DNA from: Girardia tigrina
Lineage: Eukaryota
Direction: 5' to 3'
Assembly: GCA_001938485.1 (NCBI GenBank)
Contig: MQRK01207495.1
Location: 1-51,921, forward strand
DNA length: 51,921 nt
Part shown: positions 1,254-51,921 of the stretch, piece after piece
Numbering within the stretch: the first letter of the stretch is position 1
Layout of the letters: every line of letters begins with the position of its first letter
Translations under genes and position numbers: made by a program
Notes under the pieces: generated by a model
Databases searched by the model: none
Seen by the model: the letters and a program-made list of their open reading frames with translations, nothing else
Told to the model about the DNA's origin: nothing

Positions 1254-1879
1254 TTTCATTATATTTATGTATTTGTATAATAAAAGTAAATACAATTACA
1301 AAATTACCAAAGACACTTTTATCACAAAACGATTTAATGTCTATTTAAATAATTTAATAGATTTAAACCAACTAATACTTAATTTTAACAAATTAATATT
1401 TGTTAAAAATAAATAAATAATATTTGTTCTAAAAATAAGTTTAAAAAATTTTAAAATAACTTGATGAATTTTTTCATGTAAATTAATAATTTATAAAATA
1501 TTTTTGCGTTAAAATGTCACACTTCATTTAGTGTAACGTTTTAGGAGATTTTCTGTTAGAAGAAATAAACGAATCTAAACGGAATTTTAAATACAAATTA
1601 TTTAATGTAACCTCACATTAACAATAATTACTATCTTTAAATACTTTAAAAAATAAAAAACAACCCATCTAAATTTATGAATAAATTTTGTCTTATGTTT
1701 TCTTAAATCATCATTAGCAATTATTTGTTATATTTATTGATAATGACATCAGGAATTCTATGATCATATTTTCAAAAATGCCTTAAATTAATTTAACTGG
1801 CGTTCAGAAAGTGAATAGTAAAATTATTGGATAAGTAATGAAAGTTTTAGTTGATCAAATATTATAAGTATTGAGCTGG

Positions 1880-2600
1880 TGATCGACTTGAAAGTTCACA
1901 AATCCGGATTTTCAAAAGAAGATTGGCTTCTATCGTGGACCTCCCATCTCTTTCAAATTATTGAGCATATATGCTCTTCTGGGTCGTCTAAACCAAAGAA
2001 TTAAACAACCACCAATGAAGGTCGGAGTGTTTTGGTAATATAAGATCATCCGTGGATTAATGTTTTGTGATTGTGCAAACCTTTGACTGCGGTAAAGCAT
2101 CTAACACAGCCATGAAATGTTCCTTTGAAACTACCAAAGAGATCTGTGATCCTAAAAGCTAAATGTATACCTTTGAAACCTATAGTTTTACTTCAGCCGT
2201 TAAAGTGGTCGGAGTTTCCGCTTGTGATTGAATGTTTTCTTATGGAATATCTTCAGAAATATCGACATCTGCATTACCGGTGTTGTTGGTTTGACTATCT
2301 TCTGCTGTCTGAAATGTTGTTTTCTCAAGCTCCACAATTTCATTAGATTTGTGATAATCACGCCTTTATTATACACGATTTAATACCAGTGCCAAATAAA
2401 TTTATAAACCAAATTTGCTTGAAATGTACAAATTGTTTTCCATTTAATGAAAAGGGTCTGTTTTACATTGTATTTAATTGATTGAATCTTTAAATTACAT
2501 ATATTTCTACAAAAAAATTCTCCACAGTTTTTTTGTAATTCAGAAGGTATATATATAATATTGAGTCTTTTGAACACAAGTTTAATATTTTGAAAATATA
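1880..2600 (-). mobile_element. Degenerate Penelope-like element fragment (GIY-YIG region), tandem copy 1, interrupted by an insertion at ~1938-2368
   Basis: KWKTICTFQANLVYKF...Y upstream of the insertion and IEANLLLKIRICELSSRS downstream align with copy 2 (NKSKTVCGLQAYLVYKF / IGETNRHLKTRISEHSQMSRS). Confidence 0.65.
1938..2368 (-). mobile_element. 3' fragment of RTE-like LINE with C2H2 zinc-finger relic
   Basis: Minus strand encodes TFHGCVRCFTAVKGLHNHKTLIH (C2H2-like). It ends in gctcaataatttgaaagagatgggagg, shared with the insert at 3092-3271. Confidence 0.55.
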
Positions 2601-2623
2601 ATTTGATTAAACCTTTTTTTATA

Positions 2624-2675
2624 TAAATATTGGACATGTTTCGATGTTTACATACATCATCATCAGCAATATTTA
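2624..2675 (-). ncRNA. Minimal type I hammerhead ribozyme in PLE terminal repeat
   Basis: Minus strand: uaaauauug CUGAUGA U GAUGU-auguaa-ACAUC GAA ACAUGU C caauauuua. Perfect 9-bp stem I, 5-bp stem II, palindromic stem III, GUC cleavage triplet. Confidence 0.9.
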
Positions 2676-3091
2676 GAAATTTTGTATAAGAATATTTAAA
2701 TTGTTTTCATAACATAATTTTAAAAGGTATATTAACTTTAAATGGAAAAATTTTTAATAAATATTTTTATTTATTAAAGTATTATTGGGTAATAATGGCA
2801 AAAAAATATCTTAATTAAAAATTTAAGTATTGAAATAACCTTACTTTGCCCATTCTGAATGTTAATTGATGGGTTNNNNNNNNNNNNNNNNNNNNNNNNN
2901 NNNNNNNNNNNNNNNNNNNNNNNNNTCGTAATGTGAATCAAAACCCTTTTGTAGAACAGAAAACTCATCTTTTGAAATGGATGAGGTTCTATCTTTACAA
3001 CATAACCAATGATCAAGAACCTTACTCGATCGACTCATTTGCGAATGCTCACTTATCCGGGTTTTGAGATGACGATTTGTCTCTCCGATGT

Positions 3092-3271
3092 GGGCCTCCC
3101 ATCTCTTTCGAATAGTATTGAGCCACTAGGCTCTAATTCAATGAATATCACAAAGGTGTTCATATTCTTGTACCTAGCTTCTTCTTGGATTTTCTTTAAG
3201 AAAGAGATAGCTTGTTGGGTTCCTCTGTCTGGCCGGAATTCGAATTGCCAATTGTTGATGATTGCCACAGA
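3092..3271 (-). mobile_element. Internally deleted RTE-like LINE (RT fragment fused to 3' end)
   Basis: QFEFRPDRGTQQAISFLKKIQEEARYKNMNTFVIFI matches the non-LTR RT motif QxGFRxxRxTxxxI...FID, then ILFERDGRPT. Flanked by GATGT direct repeats at 3087-3091 and 3272-3276. Confidence 0.75.
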
Positions 3272-4936
3272 GATGTACGAGTTTTGCTACCCGTGAGAAT
3301 AAAATTTATATACCAGATAAGCTTGCAAACCACAAACTGTTTTCGATTTATTTGAGAGGAAACTTTGAACTTTGGATGTGACAGAGACTACTTTGGCACT
3401 ACTTTTTGTTCTACAAATACTCTTCTTAAAAGCTCTAAACCCTTTAGAATATTGTATCTTAATGATTTGTTTGTATTCTTCAGTACTTTCTTCTTCTAAT
3501 TGTTTTTTAAGAAGCAGTTAAAAAAACAAGAAACAATTAAAAGAAGCAAATACTGAAGAAAACAAACAAATCATTAAAATTTCATACAAACAAACAATTT
3601 TCAGACAAAACTTATAATGAAATTTGTATTTACAGGCCAAATTTATGTACATGTAATCACTATGCAATCACTAAATCATAAAAAAGACTTAATACAGTTG
3701 AATAAAATTCAATTTTCCCTGTTAGGGATTGAAATATTAAATTTAAAATTTTCGATGCATAACATAAATTTTCAAAGTAAAAATTTTCATATAAATTTTA
3801 AAACGAAAATTTAGTAAAATAAATTTAAACAAGTTATTTTAATGTATTTATTATTTTATTTTGTGCGTCTGTAATTCTAAGTAAAATGTTTCCTCCCGAA
3901 ATTAAAGGAAAATATTAAAAAATTAATTTGTTTTAATAATTTGTATTTGTGATATTACTATATTTTTTGAAAATAAATATTTTATTTTTATATGATAAAT
4001 AATTCAAATTTGTCAATACGAAACAATGATAACATGCACATTGATTTTTTAAAAAAAGCTTTTATCATCATTTCATCATATATCACTTTCCTTCAGTAAT
4101 TATTGAACTGTGAACGCAAAATCATCGTATGAGATGATAAACGAATATTTTAAAGTAATAAAGAAAGAAATTCAGTGGCTTTTGACCGGAAAAATGTAAA
4201 TTCGATTCAAAAGGTTTCATGTTTGCTTGGTGGCAAACAAGAGGCGTGATCAAATATGTGGTTCTAGCTCCCCAACCATGTAGAACATATTATCACTTTT
4301 AGTGTTTCACGCTACAATATTTTGATTGAAAAGAGTATGCAAGAATTTTCAGACTTAACAAAAACGTTTTCTCTCAAAAATATATAAAAAATGTAATTAA
4401 TAAATGAAAGTCTGATGTTTTTGTGATGTAAAACGACGTTATTTATGCGACGACCGAATTTTTTATTTATTTTCCCATGTGTATTATTTATCTTTACTTA
4501 ATTTAATATATTTTTTATTTAGGGAGTCAAATGACATTTTTTCCAAAATTCAAATATAACATTCTTTCATTTGCTTTCTATTAACAGAGACTTTCAGTTT
4601 AGTAATTTAATTTAATTTAATTCAAAAATTAATTTCTTATTTTCTATTTTGTATTTGCTTTCTGAATTTATTCTGAATTAATTAAAATAAGCCATATAAA
4701 TCAATTCTAAAAAACTGTTTTATTTAATTTGATTGAAGTTGGTTCAATGTCAAATGTCCTAATTGGATCAGAAATGAAGTATAATAAAATTGGAATCCTT
4801 TCAGAAAAATTAATATTGTTTATATTTTCATTTTTATATTTAAAATTTTATATATATATATATATATNNNNNNNNNNNNNNNNNNNNNNNNNNNNNNNNN
4901 NNNNNNNNNNNNNNNNNTTTTCATTTTTATATTTAA

Positions 4937-7508: not shown

Positions 7509-7986
7509 TCTATCGGTTATTTCTTTAACCTACTCTGTTTATGCATCTTAAATGCCAAACATGTTGCGGCCGCTCGAAAGCTTCATACGAGGGCAATACA
7601 ATAGAGTTTCTTGATTCCGATAATTTAAATATTTTTTTGGTACGGTAGCCGTTGGGCCGTTGGTACACTCAATTATGCAAAAAAACATTATAGCTTGGTT
7701 TTGCATATTTTTGTGTGTTTCAGTAGGCAAAAAACCTGGTGGCTCCTATCTCCTCTCCAGGTATGGATGGCCGTTGGCTACGAAGAGCTCATCCACTCAT
7801 TGCTAGGTTTTGATTTTTATCCAGCTAGGTGTTCTTAGTTTTTTTGTTTTGCAAAGATTAAAGAGGTTCGAATTAGGGAGACATAATCTCGAAAAACTAT
7901 GCTTTGTATGGCTGTAGAAGCTTATCAAATTATTACTTTCAATTATTGATTTTTGTAAAAAGTAATTTATTATAATTTATAATTTA

Positions 7987-8672
7987 TTAGGTTGTTGCAA
8001 AAGGAATGCAGGTTTTTGATTTTTTTGTATTTACCGCAAAGATATACGACTAAAGCATGTATGGTGTTATACGTCATTTGAAAGTTGTATTTATATCCTC
8101 ACTACTTTCCGAAACCGAAACTCCACCAAAAGAAGGTTATGGTGACTGTTAAGTTGTCTGAAGCCGGTCTCATCCATCACAGCTTTCTGAACACAGATGA
8201 AACCACAGAGAAGTACTGCTCACAAATTAAAAAAAATACATCACGAGCTCCAAATTGTGTGCCCGAGATTGGTCAATATGAAGGGGCCAATTCTCCTCCA
8301 CGGCAACGCACGTCCACACATCGCAAAACCGATCTTACAAAAGCTAAACGAATTGGGCTACGTAACTCTGCCTCTTCCACCATACTCACAAGTCCTCTCG
8401 CCTACCGATTAACACTTTTTCAAGCATCTTGACAACTTCCTCCAGGAAATATGCTTCAAAAACCAAGACGACGCCTAAGACGCCTTTAACGCTTTCATCG
8501 AATCTAGAACTCAGGAGTTCTACACTAGGGGCATCAATAAACTTGTTTCTCGTTGACAAAAATGTATTAATTCTTATGGTTATTATTTCGATAAGTAAAG
8601 TTTATTCGGTGATGAGTTACGTTTGTTTAAAGTTTAGGTTCAAAAACCTGAATTGCTTTTGCAACAACCTAA
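7987..8672 (+). mobile_element. Internally deleted mariner with both TIRs and TA TSD
   Basis: TIRs ttaggttgttgcaaaaggaatgcaggtttttga / tcaaaaacctgaattgcttttgcaacaacctaa. TA at 7985-7986 and 8673-8674. Frameshifted catalytic half (PKPKLHQKKVMV, LHGNARPH, PPYSQVLSPTD); HTH missing. Confidence 0.93.
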
Positions 8673-8717
8673 TATTATAAAATTTTAATATTGTTCTTTA
8701 TTAAATTTCGAATATAT

Positions 8718-14402: not shown

Positions 14403-15292
14403 NNNNNNNNNNNNNNNNNNNNNNNNNNNNNNNNNNNNNNNNNNNNNNNNNNTATATATATATATATATATATATATAACATCTATTACCAGCCACAAGT
14501 GTAAACATCCTCTTTTATATTACGCTCAATGTACATGAAAAATTATTCAATTACTAAAATGTAAACCTAAATTTAAGTAACTAATCAATTAATGATTTTT
14601 AAAGGGAATTTTAATTTACTCTTCCTTCTTCAAGAACCTTTAGTTTAAGTTGGCTTCACGCCTAACCATAAACAGATTATATTGTTTTCGATTTAAGCAT
14701 ATTATGTGTTTAAAAAAGTAATTAAAAAAATAAATAAAAAAAATATAAAAAAAATATTTAAGTCCCACAAACATATTTTTATATATGTACACAAAATTAA
14801 TTTATAAAAACATAATATTTTTAATAATAAAAAACGTAATTATCGTAAATTTTCCTGTATGCTAATCTGACTTGTAAACATATGGACTTTGGGATACCTC
14901 CTCAAATAATAACTCAAAAAAGGATGTTCCATCAAATCTACCCAAATTAAATGAAATAAATTTTCTTTAAAAATATTTTTCTTTATTATTTAATAATTTC
15001 TCAAAACATTAGGATATAATTACCGTACACAGAAAAACAAAATAAGAAGAAATTATTATGTTAAACATAATATGCATTAATGTTCCCAAAACTCTGAAAG
15101 TGGTAGTTAATCGTGAAATAATCTATATATATATATAAAGAGAGAGAGAGACTGATTTAAGTACAGAATTATGAATTGGAGTATTGAAGTAACTTCTTTA
15201 AAAGTTTTCACACATAAATATTATTTCTAATGTCGTTGATATGGGTTAAATAAATAAAAATATTTATTTCAAAATTAAAATTCGAAAGCCAA

Positions 15293-15353
15293 TTGAAAAT
15301 ATTTATAAATTTCGACGGTTTAACCGTCATCGTCAGAACAAATGATTTTTCAA
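15293..15353 (-). ncRNA. Minimal hammerhead ribozyme (PLE family B, stem III variant AUUUAU)
   Basis: CUGACGA U GACGG-uuaaa-CCGUC GAAA core; bulged stem I. Confidence 0.75.
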
Positions 15354-17053
15354 ACGAAATTTACTTATATAGTGCANNNAATGATTATGCAATCAATACG
15401 TAATCAGTACATCATTTAAAAACTCTCAACAAAGTTGTAGAGAATGCAGTTTGAACGTTAATTTTAGGATCCAAAGATCTTATATATAACGCTTCACATA
15501 TCACTCTCTCCCAATAATTTTGAAATTGAGTGCACAGAATTTTAAAGTGTTGTGAATTTATATATTCTTTACAATGTCTTCTATGTCCTGCAATGTTACT
15601 TCCACCTTCATTGCTACTGTGTTCCTGGATTTTCTTACAGAGATGACGTGAAGTCTCTCCAATGTATGTGGTGTTACACCCATTACATGTATATTGGTAA
15701 ATGAGATCCGAACACAATCTCAATGGCGGTGGAGATTTATTGCCGAACATGCTTTCAATTTTCTGGGTACGGGATATTACTTTTAAACTTATTGCATTAT
15801 CTAACGCTTTCAAAATAGAATTTTTAAATATTTTAAACCCCTCTGAATACGGCACAGTTAACAAATAACCAATTCCCAAACCTTTATCATTAGTGTTGCA
15901 AGATTGCTCTTGATCTTGAACATCTAAAATTTTAGTATTACTTTTTTTGTCAATTAATTTATCAATAGTTTCCTTTGTTAATTTCTCTACTATCAATTTT
16001 GAATATCCATTATCATATAATAATTTGTTTAATTTATTTACATCCTTTATAAACTGACAACATCAAAAGATGCCATAATTTCATCAGTATTTTTAATATC
16101 AAATTTTGAAATAAAATCCACAAATTCAAAACTGTCAAGACACCCAAAACCTTTTGGAATTAAAGGTTTCAACATAATGCCGAGAAATTTTGCAATTTCA
16201 TATTGTGATGTTCTAATCATCGACAATACTGGACGCATCGGAATACCTTTTTTATGTACCTTAGGTAAACCATAAAGTTTAGCAGGTTGTGGTGCTACTG
16301 GCTTTAATTTCTTCGCAACATCTTTATTTATGTGATTATTATTAGCCAATTTTAATAATAGGGAACTCAAATATTCATCATCTTTCAATGGGGGCAATTT
16401 TCCGTTTTTTCTAATTTTTTCGATTTTCTTAAATTGAGAACCCTTTAATATTTCATTCATTTTCTTATTATAATCAAAATCATTCAATATTACTAACCCA
16501 TTTCCCTTGTCAAATTTACAAATATTTACCTTTTTTTAATTAGATTTTTTAATATTAAAAATTCTTTATTACTTAGATTTTCATTTTGTTTTAAATATTT
16601 ATTTGTACTATTAAAAAACATGTGTTTTAAATTTTCAAAATCCACGTTTTTATTTAATTTTGAAACATTCATAATTAAAAAATTAAACAATGTTTCAACC
16701 TTGGTTTGAAGTTTAAATTTATTAATTTTCTTTCTAATGACATGCTTTGGACCATACTTTAATATATTTAATTCATCATCGGTTAAATCAATGTTACTTA
16801 AGTTTAAAACGGTATTTTTAACATTAAATTTAAAAACACCAAACAATTTCCGCAAATTAGATAACTTTTTATTCTGTGCACTCAATTTAAAAATTATTGG
16901 GAGTGACATGTGAAGCGTTAAATATAAGATCTTTGGATCCTAAAATTAACGTTCAAACTGCATTCTCTACAACTTTGTTGAGAGTTTTTAAATAATGTAC
17001 TGATTACGTATTGATTGCATAATCATTAACTGCACTATATAAGTAAATTTCGT

Positions 17054-17114
17054 TTGAAAAATCATTTGTTCTGACGATGACGGTTAAACCGTCGAAATTA
17101 ATAAATATTTTCAA
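17054..17114 (+). ncRNA. Minimal hammerhead ribozyme (PLE family B)
   Basis: uugaaaaaucauuuguu CUGACGA U GACGG uuaaa CCGUC GAA AUUAAU A aauauuuucaa. Palindromic stem III; predicted cleavage 3' of 17103. Confidence 0.82.
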
Positions 17115-18264
17115 TTGGCTTTCGAATTTTGATTTTAATCATTTGCCAATTTTATTTCAATTTATTCACAATTATTTCAAAATTGTCATTTATTTTGTTA
17201 ATTCAAATTGAAAAGAATTACATTAATTGATTTACAATCAAACTTTAAAAGTATAATAATTACAAAATATCCGAATAATACTATATACAACCCAAACTCC
17301 AAAAAACGAAGGTATATCTTACGAATTTCTAGTTTACGAAACACAAAATGATTTTAACTTGCGTTAATCAAAACTAATTTCTAGAGAATAATACTTTCAC
17401 AAAAGTAATTATAAATTCTTCTAAATAGTCTCATAATAATATGAATTGTCCTTCTCATTTCTGAGAATTTTTTAATTAAATCATTTTAAGTGTGAGCAAT
17501 TGAAAATGAGTGCTTCCACTTTTCAATAATCTCAGCCTCACGTTTTGCGTTTGAGGAAGAAATTTTAAATAAAATATTTGACTAAAAGAATATTTACTAT
17601 ATTATTAGAGGTGTACATTTTATTTATATTCTTTTCATCAAAATATTCTATCTAAATAAAAAAATACTCATGGGACTTACCATATTATAGTACTCAGTCA
17701 ATGACTCTTTGAAGTTTCATCTATCGTTATTGAGTTCATTCTCATTCTTTTTATTTTATTGATGTTCAAAGTGAATTTAGAACAAAAATTATGATTTTGC
17801 ATTCCCTTCAATCCCTTGAGTGTTAGATTGTATGTGTGATGAAGTATGTACGTATGAAGATTCTATGCGTGATTAAGTCGCAACTCCAAATGATTTTATC
17901 CCACACCATTTTTAATATAAATTAGAAATCTTTAAGATGAGACTTCTCTCACTCAATGTGATTTTAAAAGCCTCTACGTTGAATCAAAAACAATTTGTAA
18001 TCCAATCAATGTCAATCAACTGTTACGACGAACAAAATTATATTCTGAAAAGAAAGTGTGTTCTCTCAACTGTATCAGCTTTGAATCTGATGGAAATTCG
18101 TATGTTTCTCCAATCATCAGGATTAAAGTTTACCTTAAACTTCTATTTTTCTATTTCTTATGTAACAAAGAATGTGCCCTGTTTTAACAATATCTATATT
18201 GATGCAGAAACCGTGTCTTTTTCGATACAAAGGAGAAAGTAAGCCTTTTTCTCGCGATAATATC

Positions 18265-18965
18265 CGTGAATTTTGGAGTCGAATGTCCATATGGATCTTT
18301 TCAATTTTGTGTTTCTTCCTAACTATGCGCGTGCATAGATTATGAAGGGCATGCAACTTCTTAATGTTCTTGTACGCAGTTCTCCAGCTTTCACAGCCAT
18401 AGCAGACTACAGAAAATATGCATGCGTTGATAATTTTCTTCTTATTCCTCATACTCAGTTTGGAGCCCTTCAGCAGTGGTCTCAGATCCTTGATCTTCTA
18501 GGTTCCTTTCTTGATTCTTTCCTTAACTTCCGCGTCTACATTTCCTGCTGAAGAGATCGTGGATCCTAGGTACCAAAAGCTAGTGACCCACTCAATACAG
18601 GCCTTAACCTGGTGCCTAGCAGTAAGGTTTCGACTATCTCCGTTTAGGTTCAAAACTTTGGTTTTACCGATGTTAATTTTGAGACATAAATCTAAAAGGA
18701 ATGCATTTAAAATGTTCAAATTATTCATCAGGTTTTCCAGTTCGTATTGATGAGGTAGAAGTCCTCCGCACAGGCTTATCTGTTGATCATAAGGAAACTT
18801 CCATCTTCATGTTTTAGCATCACTCCTACAGAGAGACCGTTCAATATTACTCTTTCACCGCCGTGTCGAATACAATATTGAACATGAGCGGCCCTAAAAC
18901 ACAACCTTGACGTACTCCTTTATCCATGTAGAAGGTTTTATCCCCTATAGAACCTTCGAATCTGT
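18265..18965 (-). mobile_element. RTE-clade LINE reverse transcriptase fragment
   Basis: KGVRQGCVLGPLMFNIVFD (~18870-18925), KINIGKTKVL, FWYLGSTIS, EVKERIKK, VVCYGCESW; frameshifted. Confidence 0.88.
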
Positions 18966-19601
18966 CATGGAAAGCTTTGATGATTTTCTTTTGATTTTAC
19001 TCACACTTTTTTACACCATTTTTTTACGGAAATTAAAATCATTATTCACACATTTTTTAAAAACTGACAGAGATCTTTTGACTAATTGAAATAAACACAT
19101 ATCACACTTTTCCCAATCAACTATTCACATTTTCAAATTCACACACATACACGCAATCATATTCAAACACACACATTCACATTCAAACAAATACACGTTC
19201 AAATTTACACACATACACCAAAACGAAATTAAACAAACTTCATTGACTCATGTGATTTGCATTTCTCTAATGAATACAAGATATTTATTATTCATTATTG
19301 AATAATTAAAAAGATGAAAACTAAAATATTAAAACCAAATTTAAAAGACCAATAAAAGAGACCTAAATCATTTATTCGTTTATTATTAATTTTTTAATTT
19401 CTTATTTTATTTAATTTAATAAATTTTTGAATTATATATTTCTTACTTTATTTTAATTATTTAATTTATTTATAATATCTTTCTTAAACTGGCAAAATGT
19501 TCGTTCAAACATTTAATTTTCCGCTTCATATACTATTAGGCAATTTTAAACTAAGAAAAATTTAAATTAATATTTTTAAATATATATATATATATATTGT
19601 T

Positions 19602-20706
19602 CTAGGTGCTTTGACCATAGGTAGTTTTCCCACAGTGGGGCTTTGACCACAGGTGGTTTGGTCGAGCAACACCTTGAAGAAAATTTATTTTCTGCTTCGT
19701 GCAGTCCATAAGCAGACCGTTAAGGAAACGCCGCATTGTTGGGTGACAACATTGTAGCAGCGACTGTAGACTGTTATACCATCCTTCGCAAATGTTGTTC
19801 GTTCGTGCTACACCATCGCCAATCGTCTGCATTTGATTCCAAGTTTCCATTGCAAATAAGGCAGGTTTGTAGTTTTCTCAACGATCACGCATGCGACGTC
19901 CTCGGATATAAGTGTGCTCGAAGTATGTCAGCATCTCGTAAATGTTATTAATTACTGGTATCGAGTCTGATAGTATTAGTTCGATTAATAGTTCGAAGGC
20001 TTCTGTAACATCTTGTACTGGTACAAGAGATAGGGCGGCAAGACAACGAACAGTGATACGCACATCTTTATTAGTTTCATATTCCACTTTCAGTCCAACC
20101 TCATGTACTTTTCGTATTATGCTTTGAGCAAGATGGAAATAGCAGCCTGTAGTACGAGCATCAGGAAATATTTCTTGAAATGCACCCATTGCTGTCATTT
20201 CAAAATCGGTGCGAATAATTGTTGGTGCTGCCCACGGAATAAGACGCACTACTTCCTGGAGTAATCGGTCGTACGTGGCACGTGTTTTATCTGGTAAAAG
20301 ACAGTATAACGCAGCTGGATTGGCGCCTTTGACAAATTGAAAATGAATAGTATAAAGCTGGAAAAATACTTTACTTTGCCCATTAAGATTATTTCAATAC
20401 TTAAATTTTTAATTAAAATATCTTTGCCATTTTTGCCAAATAATACTTTAATAAATTATAGTATATACTGAAAATTATTCCATTTAAACTTAATATAAAT
20501 TTTAAAATCATTTATATTAAGAACAATTAAAATATTAGATTCTGGCCCACGCAAGCCAAAATCATGGAATACTATACAAATATTAAAATGCTAAATTTAC
20601 AAATATTGTTGATGATGATAATATATAAAAGAAGCTTTAATCAAATTATCAAGCTGGTGACAAACCACCTATGGTCAAAACCCCTGTGGTCAAACCTCCG
20701 CGTACC
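19602..20706 (-). mobile_element. Mutator/MULE element, internally deleted
   Basis: QLYTIH, YCLLPDKT..TY, TDFE, GCYFH, RTNNICEGW motifs. Both ends carry inverted tttgacca(c/t)agg subterminal repeats. (TA)n runs on both sides. Confidence 0.9.
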
Positions 20707-21742: not shown

Positions 21743-24700
21743 TATGGTGTTTCCCTCCCACCATATAATTTTTTTTAGTTATTTAATTCCCACCAAACCA
21801 GCATTTGATGATGGGTCATATAAAGACTCAGCAGACAAAATTTTATCAAATTTAAACAATATTTAGAACTTGCTCAACAAATGTTTGTTTTCGAAATACA
21901 CTTTCTGCCATTTTTTCATCAATTGTCTGCCTTGTCTGACCATATTATGTCTTCTATGGCATACTTATTGGCTCTAGTGAAAGTGTTTAGTTCTTGGGTC
22001 ATGTGACATGACAAGGGCAGACATTTTGATTGTTTATATTACTTCATTATTCATATTGATTCATTATTCAATAGTCAATAGTATTAAGTATATTATGCAA
22101 CACACTTTTTAATAAAAAGTATTTGCATTATTTTCAGATATATTTCACTTAGGCAGCGCCAGGAACTGAATTCATCCACAATGACTGCATATAATATACG
22201 TTCATCAAGTTCCATTTGGTTAGTCGGTGCTACAAATGAAACTTTTCAAACTTCTAAACTTCGATCACGTGGTGATATCTTGAAGGTTTTGTTATACTAT
22301 CACACCGATGAGGCCATTAGCTTGAAGGAAAGCATTGATAAATCTGTTTCATTATTGTTATCTATATGGGAGATGGCCAGAATTCCGACGAAGGCCCGAA
22401 ATCACGTGGTTGAACACGTCCGCATTCTGAATGGCAGTGTCTCAAGAAGAACATCAATCGCAGTTCAGCAACAAATTTGTCCAATCAAGAGAAATTCTGT
22501 GAAAGACTGGATGATCTCTTTGATATTGCTCACCGAGATGCCATGTCAACCATAAAGATTGAAGAGGACAGATTGTTTCTAGTTGCTCAGCGTGAGAAAG
22601 GACGCACAGGAAAAATGGGGGTGTAGACATAGCACATGTATTGAAGGAAGAACGAGCAATAAAACGGAAAATAGCAGCTGAAAAGTATTCATTGAAAGTA
22701 AATATAATAGGTGCAACAACAGTACCAATATTACCAATGTCACTTTTAACTCATGCCATTACTAGCGATGAGAATTCGTCACAGTCATCAGAATCAGATG
22801 CTGAACTTGAAGCTGGTCCACCCATTCCTAAAACTCCCAAGACACAGAGTCAGACAGCAAGAGGTACTGTGGATATTGTGACTCCTCAAGTTGCTGCTGC
22901 TCTTGATAGAACAAACACTAGTGACAGAAGGCTGCACATATATTTTCTGCGATGGCATCTACAGGACTACTCAAGCAAGATGTGGAAGAAGTCATTATTA
23001 GTGCCAGCGCTATCAGGCGAGCACGCATGAAGCATCGCAAGCTTTTCAGCTCGGAAGTCAAGGACACATTTGATCCAGCAGTGCCATTAATTTTACATTG
23101 GGACGGTAAGATAATGGATGACCTTACTGGTCCAGAACGAGATAAAGTTGATAGACTTTCTATTCTGGTTTTTGGGTAGGACGTGGTAAAATTGTTGTCT
23201 GTCCCTAAGCTCCAAGATGGCACAGCAGCTCCAATGGCACAAGCAATCACACAAACTAATGATGACTGGGGCTTACAAGACAGGATCAAGGGTCTCTGCT
23301 TTGACACTACTTCTTCAAACACTGGCACAAAAAATGGCACTTGCATTCAGTTGGAAGAAGAGCTAGGTCGACAGTTAGTTAATTTGGCCTGTCGTCACCA
23401 CATCTCCGAGATCATTCTTGAAAAGGTTTTCAGCATTGAAGATGTCTCAAAGTCTCCTAACATGGAGTTGTTTGGTCACTTCAAAGATTTTTGACCCCGC
23501 ATTGATCAGAAGTCATTTTGTACAACAGCTGAAGATAACAACTTGGCAAGTATAATCGCTCCTTTGAAGGATAATGTCATAAAGTTTACACTGGCTCAAC
23601 TAAATAAATTTCAACCTCGTGACGACTACTGTGAATTGCTTGAACTTTCTATCATATTTTTGGTTGGTACACCTGAACGTGGAATACGATTTCGGTATCC
23701 TGGTGCCATTCACAGGGCTCGTTGGATGGCGAGAGCAATTTATTTTATAAAGATGGGGCTATTTCGCAAGCAATACGAGCCACTACAGCCTGTCACCAGC
23801 TCTCGAAAGTCTTGCGATCTTTCATATGGCCAGAAAATAAGAAATCATCTGCAGGAAGTAAATCTGTTCATCACTAAAGTATATCTGAAATACTGGTTTG
23901 AAAGTACAGCTGCAAACTGTGCTCCACGACAAGACCTTGAACTGCTTTGTGCATTATCTGAGTACCCAAACACTGAAATTACGAAGGCTGCCACTACAGC
24001 ATTTGGGCGTCACCTTTGGTATCTATCTGAAACTCTTGTTGCTTTAGGCTTCTTTGATGATGCTGTCAGTATAGAGAAGCGCTTAATGGTATTATCACTC
24101 AAAGAAGTTGAAGGCTCAGATGAGCCTCTGAAACGAATTCAGCCATTTCAGCATCCGACTACTAAGAAACTTCACAACTTTGTTACAAAAAGAACAATCA
24201 TTTTTTTCACGATTCTTGGCCTATCACAGGAATTCCTGCACGTTGATCCAAGTGACTGGGAATTTCAACCAGAGTATCAAGAAAGCAAACGCCTTGTGCT
24301 ATCTCTCAAAGTCAACAATGATTTGGCGGAACGTGGCGTTGCATTGATTCAAGAGTTCAACTCGAGTTTGACACGCAATGAAGAACAGAAGCAGTATCTG
24401 CTTCAAGTTGTTGAGAACCATAGAAAAACATTTTCAGCACCAATCAAGTCCTCAGCAGTTGATGCCAAGCTGCAGTTATTGGCCAACAGCAAATAACGAC
24501 TTACTTTTGCATTATGCAATAAAAGCATATAAACTTTAATCTGTAGTATAGGTTAGTAATAATTGTGTCGCTCGTCTGATGCTGTCATGACTATATTACT
24601 ATATTCTTTTGTAATTCTGAACAAAGTTTTTTAAAGAAACATCTTCTTCTATTACTGGTGTATTCTGCAGTTTTTATGAATTTCTTGAGGCATAGCAGTT

Positions 24701-27630: not shown

Positions 27631-27906
<276 letters not shown>

Positions 27907-32336: not shown

Positions 32337-33620
32337 TTAGGGTGAACCAAAAGTCTTTTCGTATTTTTTATTAACAATTTAAACATAATTTAACAACAAA
32401 TAAAAAACATTTAAGTTTCAAAGTAAAGGCCATTTGAATCTATTGCTTGAACCCATCTATGGGCAAGTTGTGTGATCCCGCTGTGGTACCAATCCTTGTT
32501 CTTAGTTTGCGAAGAACTGGTGACACCCGTTTTGACCTCGGCCAGATTATTGAAGCTGCGACCATGAAGAAAGTGTGCCATAGAGCGGAAAAGGTGATAG
32601 TCGGATGGCGCAAGATCCGGACTATACGCTGGGTGTGGAAGAAGTTCAAAGGCGTCCAGATTTTTGATTTTTTCCTTTGTTTGTTTGGCGGTGTGCGGTT
32701 TTGCATTGTCCTGTTATAGAAGAACTCGCTTTCGATTGATCAAAGCGAGGTATTTCTCGCCAAGTGCCGCATACATTCGATCAAGTTGGGCGCAGTAAAG
32801 GTCAGCGCCGATAGTACGACCATTTGGAACCAGCTCGAAGTGAATCACGCCTTCGAAATTCTACCAAACACACAAAAGTGCCTTCCTTGAGAAACGATCT
32901 CGTTTCGCTACCGGTTTCGCCATTTTTCCGGGATCCAACATTGATTTTGTTGGTCTGGATTACTCAAGTAAACCCACCTTTCATCGCAAATTACAATTGG
33001 ATGGATGAAACGGTCATCGCGCGGATTTTTAAGCAATTTTTGACAAGTTTCGAAACGATTTTCGGCTTGAATTTGTGTCAATTTATGAGGCACTTCTCGA
33101 CATCGTTTATTGACCTTTCCAAGAGCGTGAAGGTGTCGTATAATGAATATTTGAGGAATATCGAGTTCGGCCGACAATCTGCGAGTACTTATTGACGGAT
33201 TTGTCTCGACGGCTTCACGAATTACTCCGGAATCTACGGTGATAGGTCGGCCTGAACGTGATTTGTCTCCAAGGTCAATGTCGCCTTCATTGAACCTTTT
33301 GAACCAATTTGTGTAGTACGATTTGAGAAACATTATCGTCTTCAACTTGGCATATCTTCTTTGTTGCTGCAGTTGCGTTTAAGCCCTGTTTCCAGTAATG
33401 GCGTAAAAGAACACGAATTCCAAAATTTTCCATGATTTTTTTAAAAGACCATATAAATTATATTAACGACTAATTAGAAGTTTTAATATATATTGTGATA
33501 GAGTAGTTTAAGAGCTTTAAAAACATATAACACATGTATATAAAATATCTTTATTTGGTAATAAGAAGCAATTGAACAAAAAGACGTAGAAAATACGAAA
33601 AGACTTTTGGTTCACCCTAA
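32337..33620 (-). mobile_element. Full-length mariner with perfect 30-bp TIRs; transposase pseudogene 32411-33433
   Basis: TIR ttagggtgaaccaaaagtcttttcgtattt and its reverse complement at 33591-33620. RSGRP, VPHKL, CDERW, NGLYFET* motifs; frameshifted. Confidence 0.95.
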
Positions 33621-36986: not shown

Positions 36987-37170
36987 AATTTTTACTATCG
37001 ATAGATTTTAAAATAGACGATTTAAATTTTTTTAAAATCAATCGATAGTAAAAATTTGAATTTAAAAATCATTTTAAATCTTACAAAATTCAAAGTATAT
37101 TCAGCAATAAATCTCGTACTCCTTTGAGTTTATGTTCCAATCTGGTTTATCAATTTTCGTGTAATGGGTG
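36987..37170 (+). mobile_element. Short PLE GIY-YIG fragment with 5' fold-back hairpin
   Basis: KIQSIFSNKSRTPLSLCSNLVYQFSCNG* is homologous to KIESMFGNKSPPPLRLCSDLIYQYTCNG of the 15 kb PLE. 27-bp inverted repeat at 36987-37013 / 37030-37056. Confidence 0.75.
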
Positions 37171-38860: not shown

Positions 38861-39292
38861 ATTCGAAAGCCAATTGAAAATATTTATTAATTTCGACGGT
38901 TTAACCGTCATCGTCAGAACAAATGATTTTTCAAACGAAATTTACTTATATAGTGCAGTTAGTGATAATGCAATCAATACGTAATCAGTACATCATTTAA
39001 AAACTCTCAACAAAGTTGTAGAGAATGCAGTTTGAACGTTAATTTTAGGATCCAAAGATCTAATATATAACGCTTCACATGTCACTCTCTCCCAATAATT
39101 TTTAAATTGAGTGCACAGAATTTTAAAGTGTTGTGAAGTTATATCTCCTTTACAATGTCTTCTATGTCCTGCAATGTTACTTCCACCTTCATTGAGACTG
39201 TGTTCCTGGATTCTCTTACAATTAATAAATATTTTCAATTGGCTTTCGAATTTTGATTTTAATCATTTGCCAATTTTATTTCAATTTATTCA
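38861..39292 (-). mobile_element. 5'-truncated copy of PLE family B with short inverted 3' segment (39220-39292)
   Basis: Near-identical to ~15280-15640; IQEH...EALYIRSLDPKINVQ. The inverted segment matches 17096-17168. Confidence 0.93.
38874..38934 (-). ncRNA. Minimal hammerhead ribozyme (PLE family B)
   Basis: Reverse complement of the 17054-17114 motif, with palindromic stem III AUUAAU. Confidence 0.82.
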
Positions 39293-50149: not shown

Positions 50150-51496
50150 ATGGAAACAAGCTTCAAAAAACCAGTAAGTCAATTAACCTCGGGAGTAGTT
50201 CCCTTGGGAATTTTAGATCTCGATAACAATAAGGAATTTTCTCACGTTTTGAAAAAATCCGATGTAATAAAACTGGTGCCAACATCCGGATCAATGGCAT
50301 ATTTGAATAGCAATGGAACTATAGTTTTTCAATTATCACAAACCACTGATCCGATAGATATTTGTAATGCAAAACTGGTTTATGATATCACAATCACAGA
50401 ATGTGATACCGTTTTGGAGACTAATTTCTTCCCGAAATTATTTACGTGTATGTCATTAAAATTAGGTAACTATGTTGTTGAATCGATAAATAATCCTGGA
50501 GTTGTTTCGGATATGTTATTATATGTTTCGAAAGATAGAAACTATTTACCCTGTGGAGAAATAACCGATTTTATCCCTGATCACAATGAAATGGTATATG
50601 GAGAAAAAATAGATGCTGCCGCTGGTCCGCCAGCAGTAGCTGCAGTTCCAGCCGGTTTGCGANNNNNNNNNNNNNNNNNNNNNNNNNNNNNNNNNNNNNN
50701 NNNNNNNNNNNNNNNNNNNNNNNNTTTCTCGCTGAAACATCTCTTTGGATTTTTGCAAAATTATAACCGAGTTATTTATAATATTCTTCTGGAATTCTCA
50801 TTGGTTCGAAAAATGGATAATCCAAATATTTTTTTCGCGAAAAATGGGACCAAAGGAACTATTACAATAAATTCCCTGGAACTGCACATGAATCAACTGG
50901 AGTTGAATATTGATTATTATGCCCGATTGGTGGATCGGTTGAATCTGAAAGATAAACCGATTTATGTGGATTTTCTCCAGCGAATCTCAGTGGAATACGA
51001 TTTGACAGCCCAAAAGGTTTTCTCATGGAATGCGGCATATCTGAATTATTTACCACGATATATTTTCGTCGGAATGAAAACTGATAATTCGGGATATAAT
51101 AAAAATAATTCCCTGTTCAAAATGGATCCCAAAGAATTCTCGATTCAATTAAAATTAAATAATACCTATTACCCAATCCAGCCAATGGTGAATAATACAG
51201 AAAATCGGAATTTTTATGAATTATATAATAGTTATGTGCAATGCTGCCGCGGATTCCAAGACAAGGCCCCAATGCTATCGCTGGAAGACTGGAAATCTTT
51301 TTACCCAATTGTCTGTTTCGATACCTCGGATATCGATAAAACTTTGGATGTCAACAATGTCACCGTTACACTGCTGATTCGAAAATCTGAAACGTTTATT
51401 CAAAAAATGTATTGCGTAATTCTCCAGGAAGCCAAGGTGAAAATGTCAATTCGCGGATCGCAAATCACGATAATCGAACCATTCAAAGGAAAGTGA
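50150..51496 (+). CDS. Double-jelly-roll major capsid protein (hexon-like)
   Basis: 448 aa, beta-rich; LKHLFGF, PRYIFVGMK, IQLKLNNTYYP, ELYNSY and YPIVCFDTS motifs typical of Polinton capsid proteins; adjacent to integrase and ATPase. Confidence 0.85.
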   Translation: METSFKKPVSQLTSGVVPLGILDLDNNKEFSHVLKKSDVIKLVPTSGSMAYLNSNGTIVFQLSQTTDPIDICNAKLVYDITITECDTVLETNFFPKLFTCMSLKLGNYVVESINNPGVVSDMLLYVSKDRNYLPCGEITDFIPDHNEMVYGEKIDAAAGPPAVAAVPAGLRXXXXXXXXXXXXXXXXXXXXXFSLKHLFGFLQNYNRVIYNILLEFSLVRKMDNPNIFFAKNGTKGTITINSLELHMNQLELNIDYYARLVDRLNLKDKPIYVDFLQRISVEYDLTAQKVFSWNAAYLNYLPRYIFVGMKTDNSGYNKNNSLFKMDPKEFSIQLKLNNTYYPIQPMVNNTENRNFYELYNSYVQCCRGFQDKAPMLSLEDWKSFYPIVCFDTSDIDKTLDVNNVTVTLLIRKSETFIQKMYCVILQEAKVKMSIRGSQITIIEPFKGK

Positions 51497-51522
51497 AAAT
51501 AAAATAAAATAATTGTCAAAAA

Positions 51523-51921
51523 ATGACGGACTCGTTAAAAATACGAAAATTGATAGATACTCAAACTCCCGGTTTAATTCGAGTGAATGGAAAGGAAATG
51601 TATTTGAATCGGGAAATGTTGAAAAAGATTAAAAAATTGGAACAGAAAGGAGGAATGATCGGGGATAAATACCATTCTGGTGGTTTATTGCCACTGGCAG
51701 CTTTACTGCCATTAATTTTTGCCGGAGTCACGGCTGCGGGAGCTACAGCGGCATCGATATCAAAAACTGTTTCAAATGCTCGTGAAGCTCAGAAGAATCA
51801 GGCTGAAACCGAGAAAATAAGACAAGAAACTGCAAATATTACTCCCAAAGCAGCAACCACACCAACGGGATCAGGATTGAAAGGAAAAAAAGGAAAAAAA
51901 GGTGGAATAATACCATTATTG
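51523..51921 (+). CDS. Virion core/membrane-active-like protein, truncated by window end
   Basis: 133 open codons: ...QKGGMI..HSGGLLPLAALLPLIFAGVTAAGATAASISK...TGSGLKGKKGKKGGIIPLL. Confidence 0.75.
   Translation, partial: MTDSLKIRKLIDTQTPGLIRVNGKEMYLNREMLKKIKKLEQKGGMIGDKYHSGGLLPLAALLPLIFAGVTAAGATAASISKTVSNAREAQKNQAETEKIRQETANITPKAATTPTGSGLKGKKGKKGGIIPLL

Follow-up and report, generated by a model that had tools for sequence, protein, structure and literature searches.

The stretch of DNA analyzed here (51,921 nucleotides; hereafter, the window) has a GC content of 27.5% and is crowded with mobile elements. Among these are two fragments of Penelope-like elements (PLEs), copy 1 and copy 2 (~73% identical), both interrupted by pieces of an apparently RTE-like long interspersed nuclear element (LINE). 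Reading of the junctions confirmed what a preliminary description of this DNA had proposed, namely, that two diverged Penelope copies are split at the same point, the Ile codon of the "YIG" motif of the GIY-YIG endonuclease. Both inserts lie in the host orientation and the host endonuclease reading frame is broken; the suggestion that the LINE disables its host holds for that reading frame.

Copy 2 (minus strand) reads ...LVYKFYSHG*QNSYI, is interrupted by a 180-bp insert (3092-3271), and resumes as IGETNRHLKTRISEH. Its 5' flank (3272..3455, minus strand) comprises a linker and the start of the GIY-YIG domain up to ...QNSYI, identified by tblastn matches to residues 1-19 of protein P0008 and to another PLE at 15.6 kb, and beyond it lies an inverted repeat (3457..3579, no strand assigned), a Penelope-type 5' inversion. 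The 3' flank (2822..3091, minus strand) runs from IGETNRHLKTRISEH to the end of the open reading frame (ORF), with 66% identity to residues 18-73 of P0008, a match to residues 88-104 at 2872-2822, and a 50-N gap at 2876-2925. The 5-bp duplication described earlier is present, with ACATC on both sides of the insert (left, 3272-3276; right, 3087-3091). The 3' end, or pseudo-long terminal repeat (pLTR; 2585..2821, minus strand), has high contig depth and a hammerhead-like core read by eye (CTGATGA-stem-GAAA, ~2666-2636), for which Rfam gave no match. Stem II of this core (2,636-2,666), GATGT/ACATC, repeats the 5-mer of the target duplication, probably by coincidence. Elsewhere, 20,384-20,536 is an 84%-identical inverted copy of 2,691-2,843, in the 3' end region of copy 2, and lies beside a Mutator-like element (MULE) transposase fragment (19,878-20,393).

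In copy 1, the 5' flank (2369..2584, minus strand) runs up to NLVYKFIWHWY*IVY and is followed by a ~430-bp insert (~1937-2368) and a decayed 3' flank (1700..1934, minus strand) that begins IEANLLLKIRICE; the junctions are decayed beyond a readable duplication. Beside the junctions, copies 1 and 2 are identical at 54/74 positions (5' flank) and 32/43 positions (3' flank), and both are truncated downstream of the reverse transcriptase (RT). P0008, an intact relative, reads KFQCHGCNNQYIGETNRHLKTRISEH through the insertion site and has no insert. The C-terminal GIY-YIG endonuclease of the host was recognized by its 66% identity to P0008 and by a related copy in the window that matches PF01541 (E value, 5e-4, just below the curated cutoff); the pLTR with its hammerhead core (by eye) and the inverted 5' end are further Penelope features. 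The YIG codons belong to the best-conserved bases of the host family, and this would suffice to make them a target.

The PLE at 15.6 kb (15271..17136, minus strand) serves as a more distant comparison, with an intact YIG motif, an RT core deleted at ~16,050, and an inverted 5' pLTR (16871-17136). It is uninterrupted, as had been described, but its TACATT in place of TACATC does not explain this, since empty ACATC sites exist and the element belongs to a more distant family (45% identity to P0008 versus 66% for copy 2). Its pLTR also has a hammerhead-like core, and its 3' part recurs with 96% identity at 38,861-39,220. Another PLE fragment (37,076-37,170) stops at FSCNG, five codons before YIG, with no LINE tail after it.

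Insert 1 holds the end of a LINE ORF (2001..2368, minus strand), with an acidic linker, a last C2H2 finger (2141-2037), and a stop codon (2003-2001), followed by a whole 66-nt 3' untranslated region (UTR; 1935..2000, minus strand) that contains a hairpin (GAGCA-loop-TGCTC) and ends ...GGTCCAC. Since the finger frame stops and a 3' UTR follows, insert 1 is a natural LINE 3' end. Insert 2 is an RT piece (3135..3271, minus strand; homology at 3262-3131, corresponding to approximately residues 345-388 of protein P0005) fused over a shared AGAG to the last 43 nt of the UTR (3092..3134, minus strand), which carry the hairpin GAGCC-loop-GGCTC; contig depth is high here, and contigs share a loose end behind 3134. 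The 47-residue RT piece matched five proteins (P0001-P0005) among 1.84 billion representatives at 57-65% identity. P0005 (62%), the longest (930 aa), has RVT_1 at 314-556 and zf-C2H2 matches at 771-796 and 809-831, plus a third finger that was recognized by inspection and has its counterpart in insert 1: the last finger and the following HGW correspond to 2141-2037 (window tblastn E value, 0.011; pairwise E value, 6e-6), with a score reached by 0/500 shuffles and with finger 3 scoring 67 versus 42 and 27 for the other two. P0005 is thus similar to both inserts, to insert 2 in the RT piece and to insert 1 in the last finger, and the two derive from one LINE family with three C-terminal C2H2 fingers; the earlier statement that they carry different LINE parts (RT versus C2H2 finger) was upheld by the same matches. 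The 5' ends of the inserts are unrelated: a shared 5' junction was considered and rejected, as the score of their first 30 nt was equalled by 1,381/2,000 shuffles. The window has a third piece, from this family or a related one (18225..18987, minus strand), which spans the RT to post-RT region (E value, 3e-32 to P0005); no finger, tail, or PLE flank was detected with it.

The sequence shared by the two inserts, which we call the tail, had been described as ~40 nt long; the sharing stands and the length does not, as copy 1 holds the whole ~66-nt UTR, of which just the last 43 nt are present in copy 2. A 20-nt core occurs exactly twice in the window (1935-1954 and 3090-3109; 0 matches in 100 shuffles), and a two-sequence profile found no third copy there (next match, E value of 2.7). 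Both tails end ...GG(T/C)CCAC, without poly(A) or a microsatellite repeat. Structure in the UTR is weak (fold z-scores, -1.0 to -2.3), with one compensatory pair change in the hairpin between the two copies. Further helices (CTCTTT/AAAGAG and GTGGACC/GGTCCAC) could give a pseudoknot, but 81, 318, and 588 of 2,000 shuffles pair as well, so that the pseudoknot is without statistical support and may serve as a lead only. Rfam gave nothing credible for the tail (microRNA matches correspond to the 5' inversion), and a ribozyme (hammerhead, hepatitis delta virus-like, or twister), an intron, a terminal inverted repeat, or a long terminal repeat (LTR) was ruled out by eye, core motifs and termini being absent. 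Tail and junction patterns had 0 matches in viral and prokaryotic collections, and one tail match in a JGI metagenome, in a bacterial contig of 68% GC, was rejected as chance.

Searches for further loci and proteins added little. None of the candidate P0005 loci was confirmed (0/1 and 0/26), nor was the P0008 locus of the first candidate set (0/1); a P0008 locus among 28 further candidates (1/28) was a spurious off-frame match in a bacterial gene. Word-index protein searches confirmed 0/248 candidates for the RT piece and 0/2,076 for the P0005 C terminus, and gave no read-through junction protein, the single match to the junction frame (1/1) being an intact PLE.

The family appears RTE-like by its domain order, its Atlas neighbors, a layout resembling that of octopus RTE-2_OV, and sequence motifs. 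We do not class it as a member of RTE, its 3' end being without the microsatellite typical of that clade. The motifs before and after the RT of P0005 look RTE-like. Atlas neighbors carry RVT_1 and Exo_endo_phos, and 52% of the members of one cluster also have zf-C2H2, whereas P0005 itself, which appears to start late, has no Pfam endonuclease match. Neither a restriction-like endonuclease (RLE) nor RNase H was detected in P0005, and no zf-RVT was found at an E value of 0.1. Its similarity to L1 ORF2p is distant (85 bits over ~400 aa) and is seen only at residues 127-531; PDB matches were limited to L1, R2, and group II RTs. Elements of the Tx1 clade have an L1-like ORF2 with a C-terminal zf-RVT region, and the Tx1 protein features tested were absent from P0005. 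P0005 does carry the C-terminal C2H2 finger, which is rare but reported in the RTE clade (PMC9115989).

Contigs were taken from 4 of 24 listed sequencing runs, of which X1 and X2 represent organism A (the window's organism), X3 organism B, and X9 organism D (three species labels); the listings covered 32 of 71,621 pieces, 24 of 2,609 loose-end rows, and 15 of 344 joints. Runs X3 to X20, which include organisms B, C, and D and several metagenomes (aquatic, sediment, and leaf litter), have 5-12% of exact 31-mers in common with the window; in the B and D runs, most depth falls on the PLE family, which is compatible with close relatives or horizontal spread. Each call of a bridge from tail to PLE required 31 letters; under targeting, most tails would be expected to run into ATCGGAGAG-type PLE sequence. 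Among the listed pieces, at least two bridge the junction, in X3 (20 differences from copy 2) and X9 (38 differences); a third candidate (X1) has just 29 letters on the tail side, below the 31-letter rule. Empty sites were also found. Among the listed joints, contigs of X2 and X9 that omit insert 2 connect 3086 directly with 3272, with 5 letters that can be assigned to either flank, so that the empty site carries a single ACATC, and empty-site loose ends behind 3091 occur in 31 contigs of X3 and 12 of X9. The target duplication measures either 5 bp or 3 bp with a further 2 bp of microhomology, because AC is also kept at the end of the tail of copy 1. Upstream, most tails run into one shared sequence rather than into RT (137 contigs in X2 and 25 in X9); this sequence matches the copy 1 UTR where expected, with a score equalled at just 0.11% of window positions.

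Summed contig depths cannot be read as copy numbers, and overlap may inflate them up to 31-fold; on this scale, depths in X1 were 4.5 million for the PLE 3' flank, 3.7 million for the 5' flank, 1.5 million for the tail bin, and ~3,800 for the RT piece, with copy 1 at a depth of 52.3. Rough floors for organism A, assuming maximal overlap inflation, are 1,100-1,900 tails and 1,600-2,800 PLE flanks. The ratio of tail depth to PLE 3' flank depth in the four runs was 0.44, 0.47, 0.10, and 0.19. The ratio of 3' to 5' flank depth was 1.21 and 1.27 in the tail-richest runs versus 1.49 and 1.25 in the others, a rough comparison, as baselines differ by species; the missing 3' excess argues against a unit of tail plus PLE 3' end without a 5' flank and fits filled copies in which both flanks are retained.

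The junction is real, recurrent, and found under several species labels. Our preferred reading, to which we assign a probability of roughly 0.6, is that the LINE inserts repeatedly and site-specifically at the YIG Ile codon of an abundant Penelope family, with secondary copying. It starts from two copies at the target that are 5' truncated at different points (n = 2), whose 5' starts lie far apart on the LINE, in the RT (copy 2) and ~430 nt from the 3' end, in the last-finger region (copy 1). Different 5' ends joined to the same codon favor independent, targeted insertions, while, had both come from one ancestral insertion, a deletion would have had to begin precisely at the junction. Empty sites accompany a target-site duplication, in joints with 5 shared letters (X2 and X9) and in loose ends (X3 and X9), and the coexistence of filled and empty sites under other species labels favors targeting. 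Where PMC4494074 looks for more than 20% of flanks at one target, we observed two of two window tails and the junction under two further species labels. A broader claim, that an RTE-group LINE has evolved specificity for the Penelope YIG motif and fills a tenth to nearly half of host copies in several animal species, we put forward tentatively, at somewhat less than even odds.

Several observations weigh against repeated targeting, and most of them speak for another course of events, in which one or a few old LINE insertions in Penelope were amplified as a nonautonomous PLE, with Penelope proteins acting in trans or through segmental duplication, and then shortened internally. The 5' junction contig of copy 2 (3155-3336) has 3.9 times the depth of copy 1 with 0 differences, which means that this arrangement was copied as a unit; of the two options left by the preliminary description, targeting is favored, and amplification did occur, at least for copy 2. 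In depth, the tail surpasses the RT piece 330- to 690-fold, a ratio larger than one would expect from simple 5' truncation, although overlap inflation could lower it up to 31-fold. A joint from 3090 to 2197, linking the insert 1 body to the PLE 3' flank with no tail next to it, looks alike in X1, X2, and X9 (organisms A and D) and stands at 2.7 times single-locus depth in organism A, suggesting that deleted forms were inherited or amplified. Similarity between the two tails (36/43) is not significantly higher than that between the flanks (86/117; P = 0.21), apart from the last 20 nt (P = 0.04), a stretch picked after the fact, and terminal repeats of PLEs can mobilize intervening sequence in trans (PMC3846280). 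Amplification as a unit nevertheless demands, for copy 1, a deletion that began only a few bases from the 5' junction; moreover, the 5' ends of the two inserts show no relationship, and the tail share varies ~5-fold between species labels while empty sites persist; we consider that course unlikely as the general explanation. The duplication of copy 1 is unreadable, and evidence on the share of tails at the YIG site comes from the two window tails and from 24 of 2,609 loose-end rows; short-read contigs with unique flanks may hold too little tail to be placed. No PLE flank was detected beside the LINE piece at 18.2-19.0 kb.

That last piece would fit a weak preference, with most tails elsewhere and the YIG codons a modest hot spot since the host family has thousands of copies, and RTE elements have been described with weak insertion signatures (PMC6007223). 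This is improbable: both window tails are at the site, no loose-end group before 3092 was present among the 24 of 2,609 rows listed, and the odds that two insertions would by chance hit a single codon of a ~2.5-kb element in the same orientation are, by our estimate, ~1 in 700. Least credible, and largely refuted, is a tail native to a Penelope subfamily (as a ribozyme, an intron, or a second GIY-YIG helix) or a locus assembled in error. The copy 2 tail (3,090-3,125) continues the host frame as LNTIRKRWEAH, which is similar to the helix after YIG in such nucleases, but that frame is lost in copy 1, where the tail comes after the LINE stop codon; the coding strand has no GT-AG ends, no Rfam family applies, and P0008, the sole homologue found, is without the insert. 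The window does contain N gaps and copy 2 is a collapsed repeat, yet copy 1 with both junctions lies on a single unbroken 1,371-nt contig in both X1 and X2 and so is not an assembly artifact.

Under repeated, site-specific insertion, the LINE protein would bind its short structured 3' UTR, and its endonuclease would nick the conserved Penelope sequence around TAC ATC GGA, perhaps aided by the three fingers. Reverse transcription would then be target primed with 2 nt of microhomology (AC), leaving a duplication of 3-5 bp. Copy 1 would be an ordinary 5'-truncated insertion, and copy 2 may be a truncated insertion with an internal deletion or a template jump over AGAG. With the host pLTR kept, interrupted copies would likely be transcribed, the LINE with them, and recopied by intact Penelope elements, which could give rise to the multiplicity of copy 2.

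The remainder of the window holds other mobile elements. Three decayed Mariner-type elements (45-1,255, 7,968-8,690, and 32,337-33,620), two of them with terminal inverted repeats, are present, as are decayed transposase-like ORFs (22,088-24,496; longest piece, 333 aa, without a Pfam match) and an isolated C-terminal fragment of histone H4 (27,631-27,906). A Polinton/adintovirus-like cluster (44,900-51,921) contains a Pox_A32-type ATPase (47682-48647), a phospholipase A2-like gene (48755-49279), an rve integrase (49280-50134), a double jelly-roll capsid gene (50135-51496), and several unannotated ORFs. The histone fragment, the Mariner elements, and the Polinton-like cluster point to an animal source.

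Outside Repbase (where an entry may exist), subscription journals, and supplements, we found no Penelope-targeting or site-specific RTE element in the literature. Among LINEs with an apurinic/apyrimidinic endonuclease (APE), PMC6007223 describes only Tx1 and R1 as site specific. If repeated targeting by an RTE-group LINE is correct, the present family would be a third APE lineage with site specificity and the first element known to target Penelope; as a site-specific RTE-like family, it would represent an independent origin of targeting and a new combination of endonuclease and fingers. Each victim would become an endonuclease-dead carrier still copied by intact Penelope elements. The target would be the active-site motif of another retrotransposon, and the pair would offer a case in which the effect of a mobile element that lives inside a second one, and limits it, could be measured. 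With filled and empty sites at thousands of loci in several species, a single long-read genome would suffice to test the question.

Target-specific families have been described mainly among RLE elements, Tx1, and R1 (PMC4640811 and PMC6007223), and the closest parallel in choice of target is with the Tx1 clade, in which Tx1 lies in Tx1D, Tx1-Mar and SINEU-3 in Mariner-N4_AMi, and Tx1-8_Crp and Tx1-4_AMi in LTR elements (PMC4494074). As in those cases, a LINE (here apparently of APE type) sits repeatedly at one position of a multicopy mobile element, the same rival explanation (hitchhiking) arises, the same test by 5'-truncated copies applies, and short nonautonomous forms may dominate (PMC4494074); unlike them, the target here is the Penelope GIY-YIG motif and the protein ends in three C2H2 fingers, with no zf-RVT match. 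Octopus RTE-2_OV combines endonuclease, RT, and C2H2 in one long ORF (PMC9115989), a layout that the present family may share. RTEs often end in microsatellite repeats and have weak site signatures only (PMC6007223), whereas this family has a fixed CCAC end after a 66-nt UTR, three fingers, and recurrence at one site. Foreign sequence in a PLE at a recurrent ORF position is also known from nonautonomous Penelope derivatives (PMC3846280) and captured inserts (bioRxiv 10.64898/2026.07.22.740005); the inserts of rotifer Penelope elements are Asn rich and keep the frame, whereas here a LINE 3' end with a target duplication breaks it. Filled and empty target copies, the sense of the host transcript, and a precise 3' end are shared with R1-clade and R2-type elements (PMC4640811 and PMC6007223), from which this family differs in that its target is the coding sequence of a mobile element rather than an rRNA or snRNA gene.

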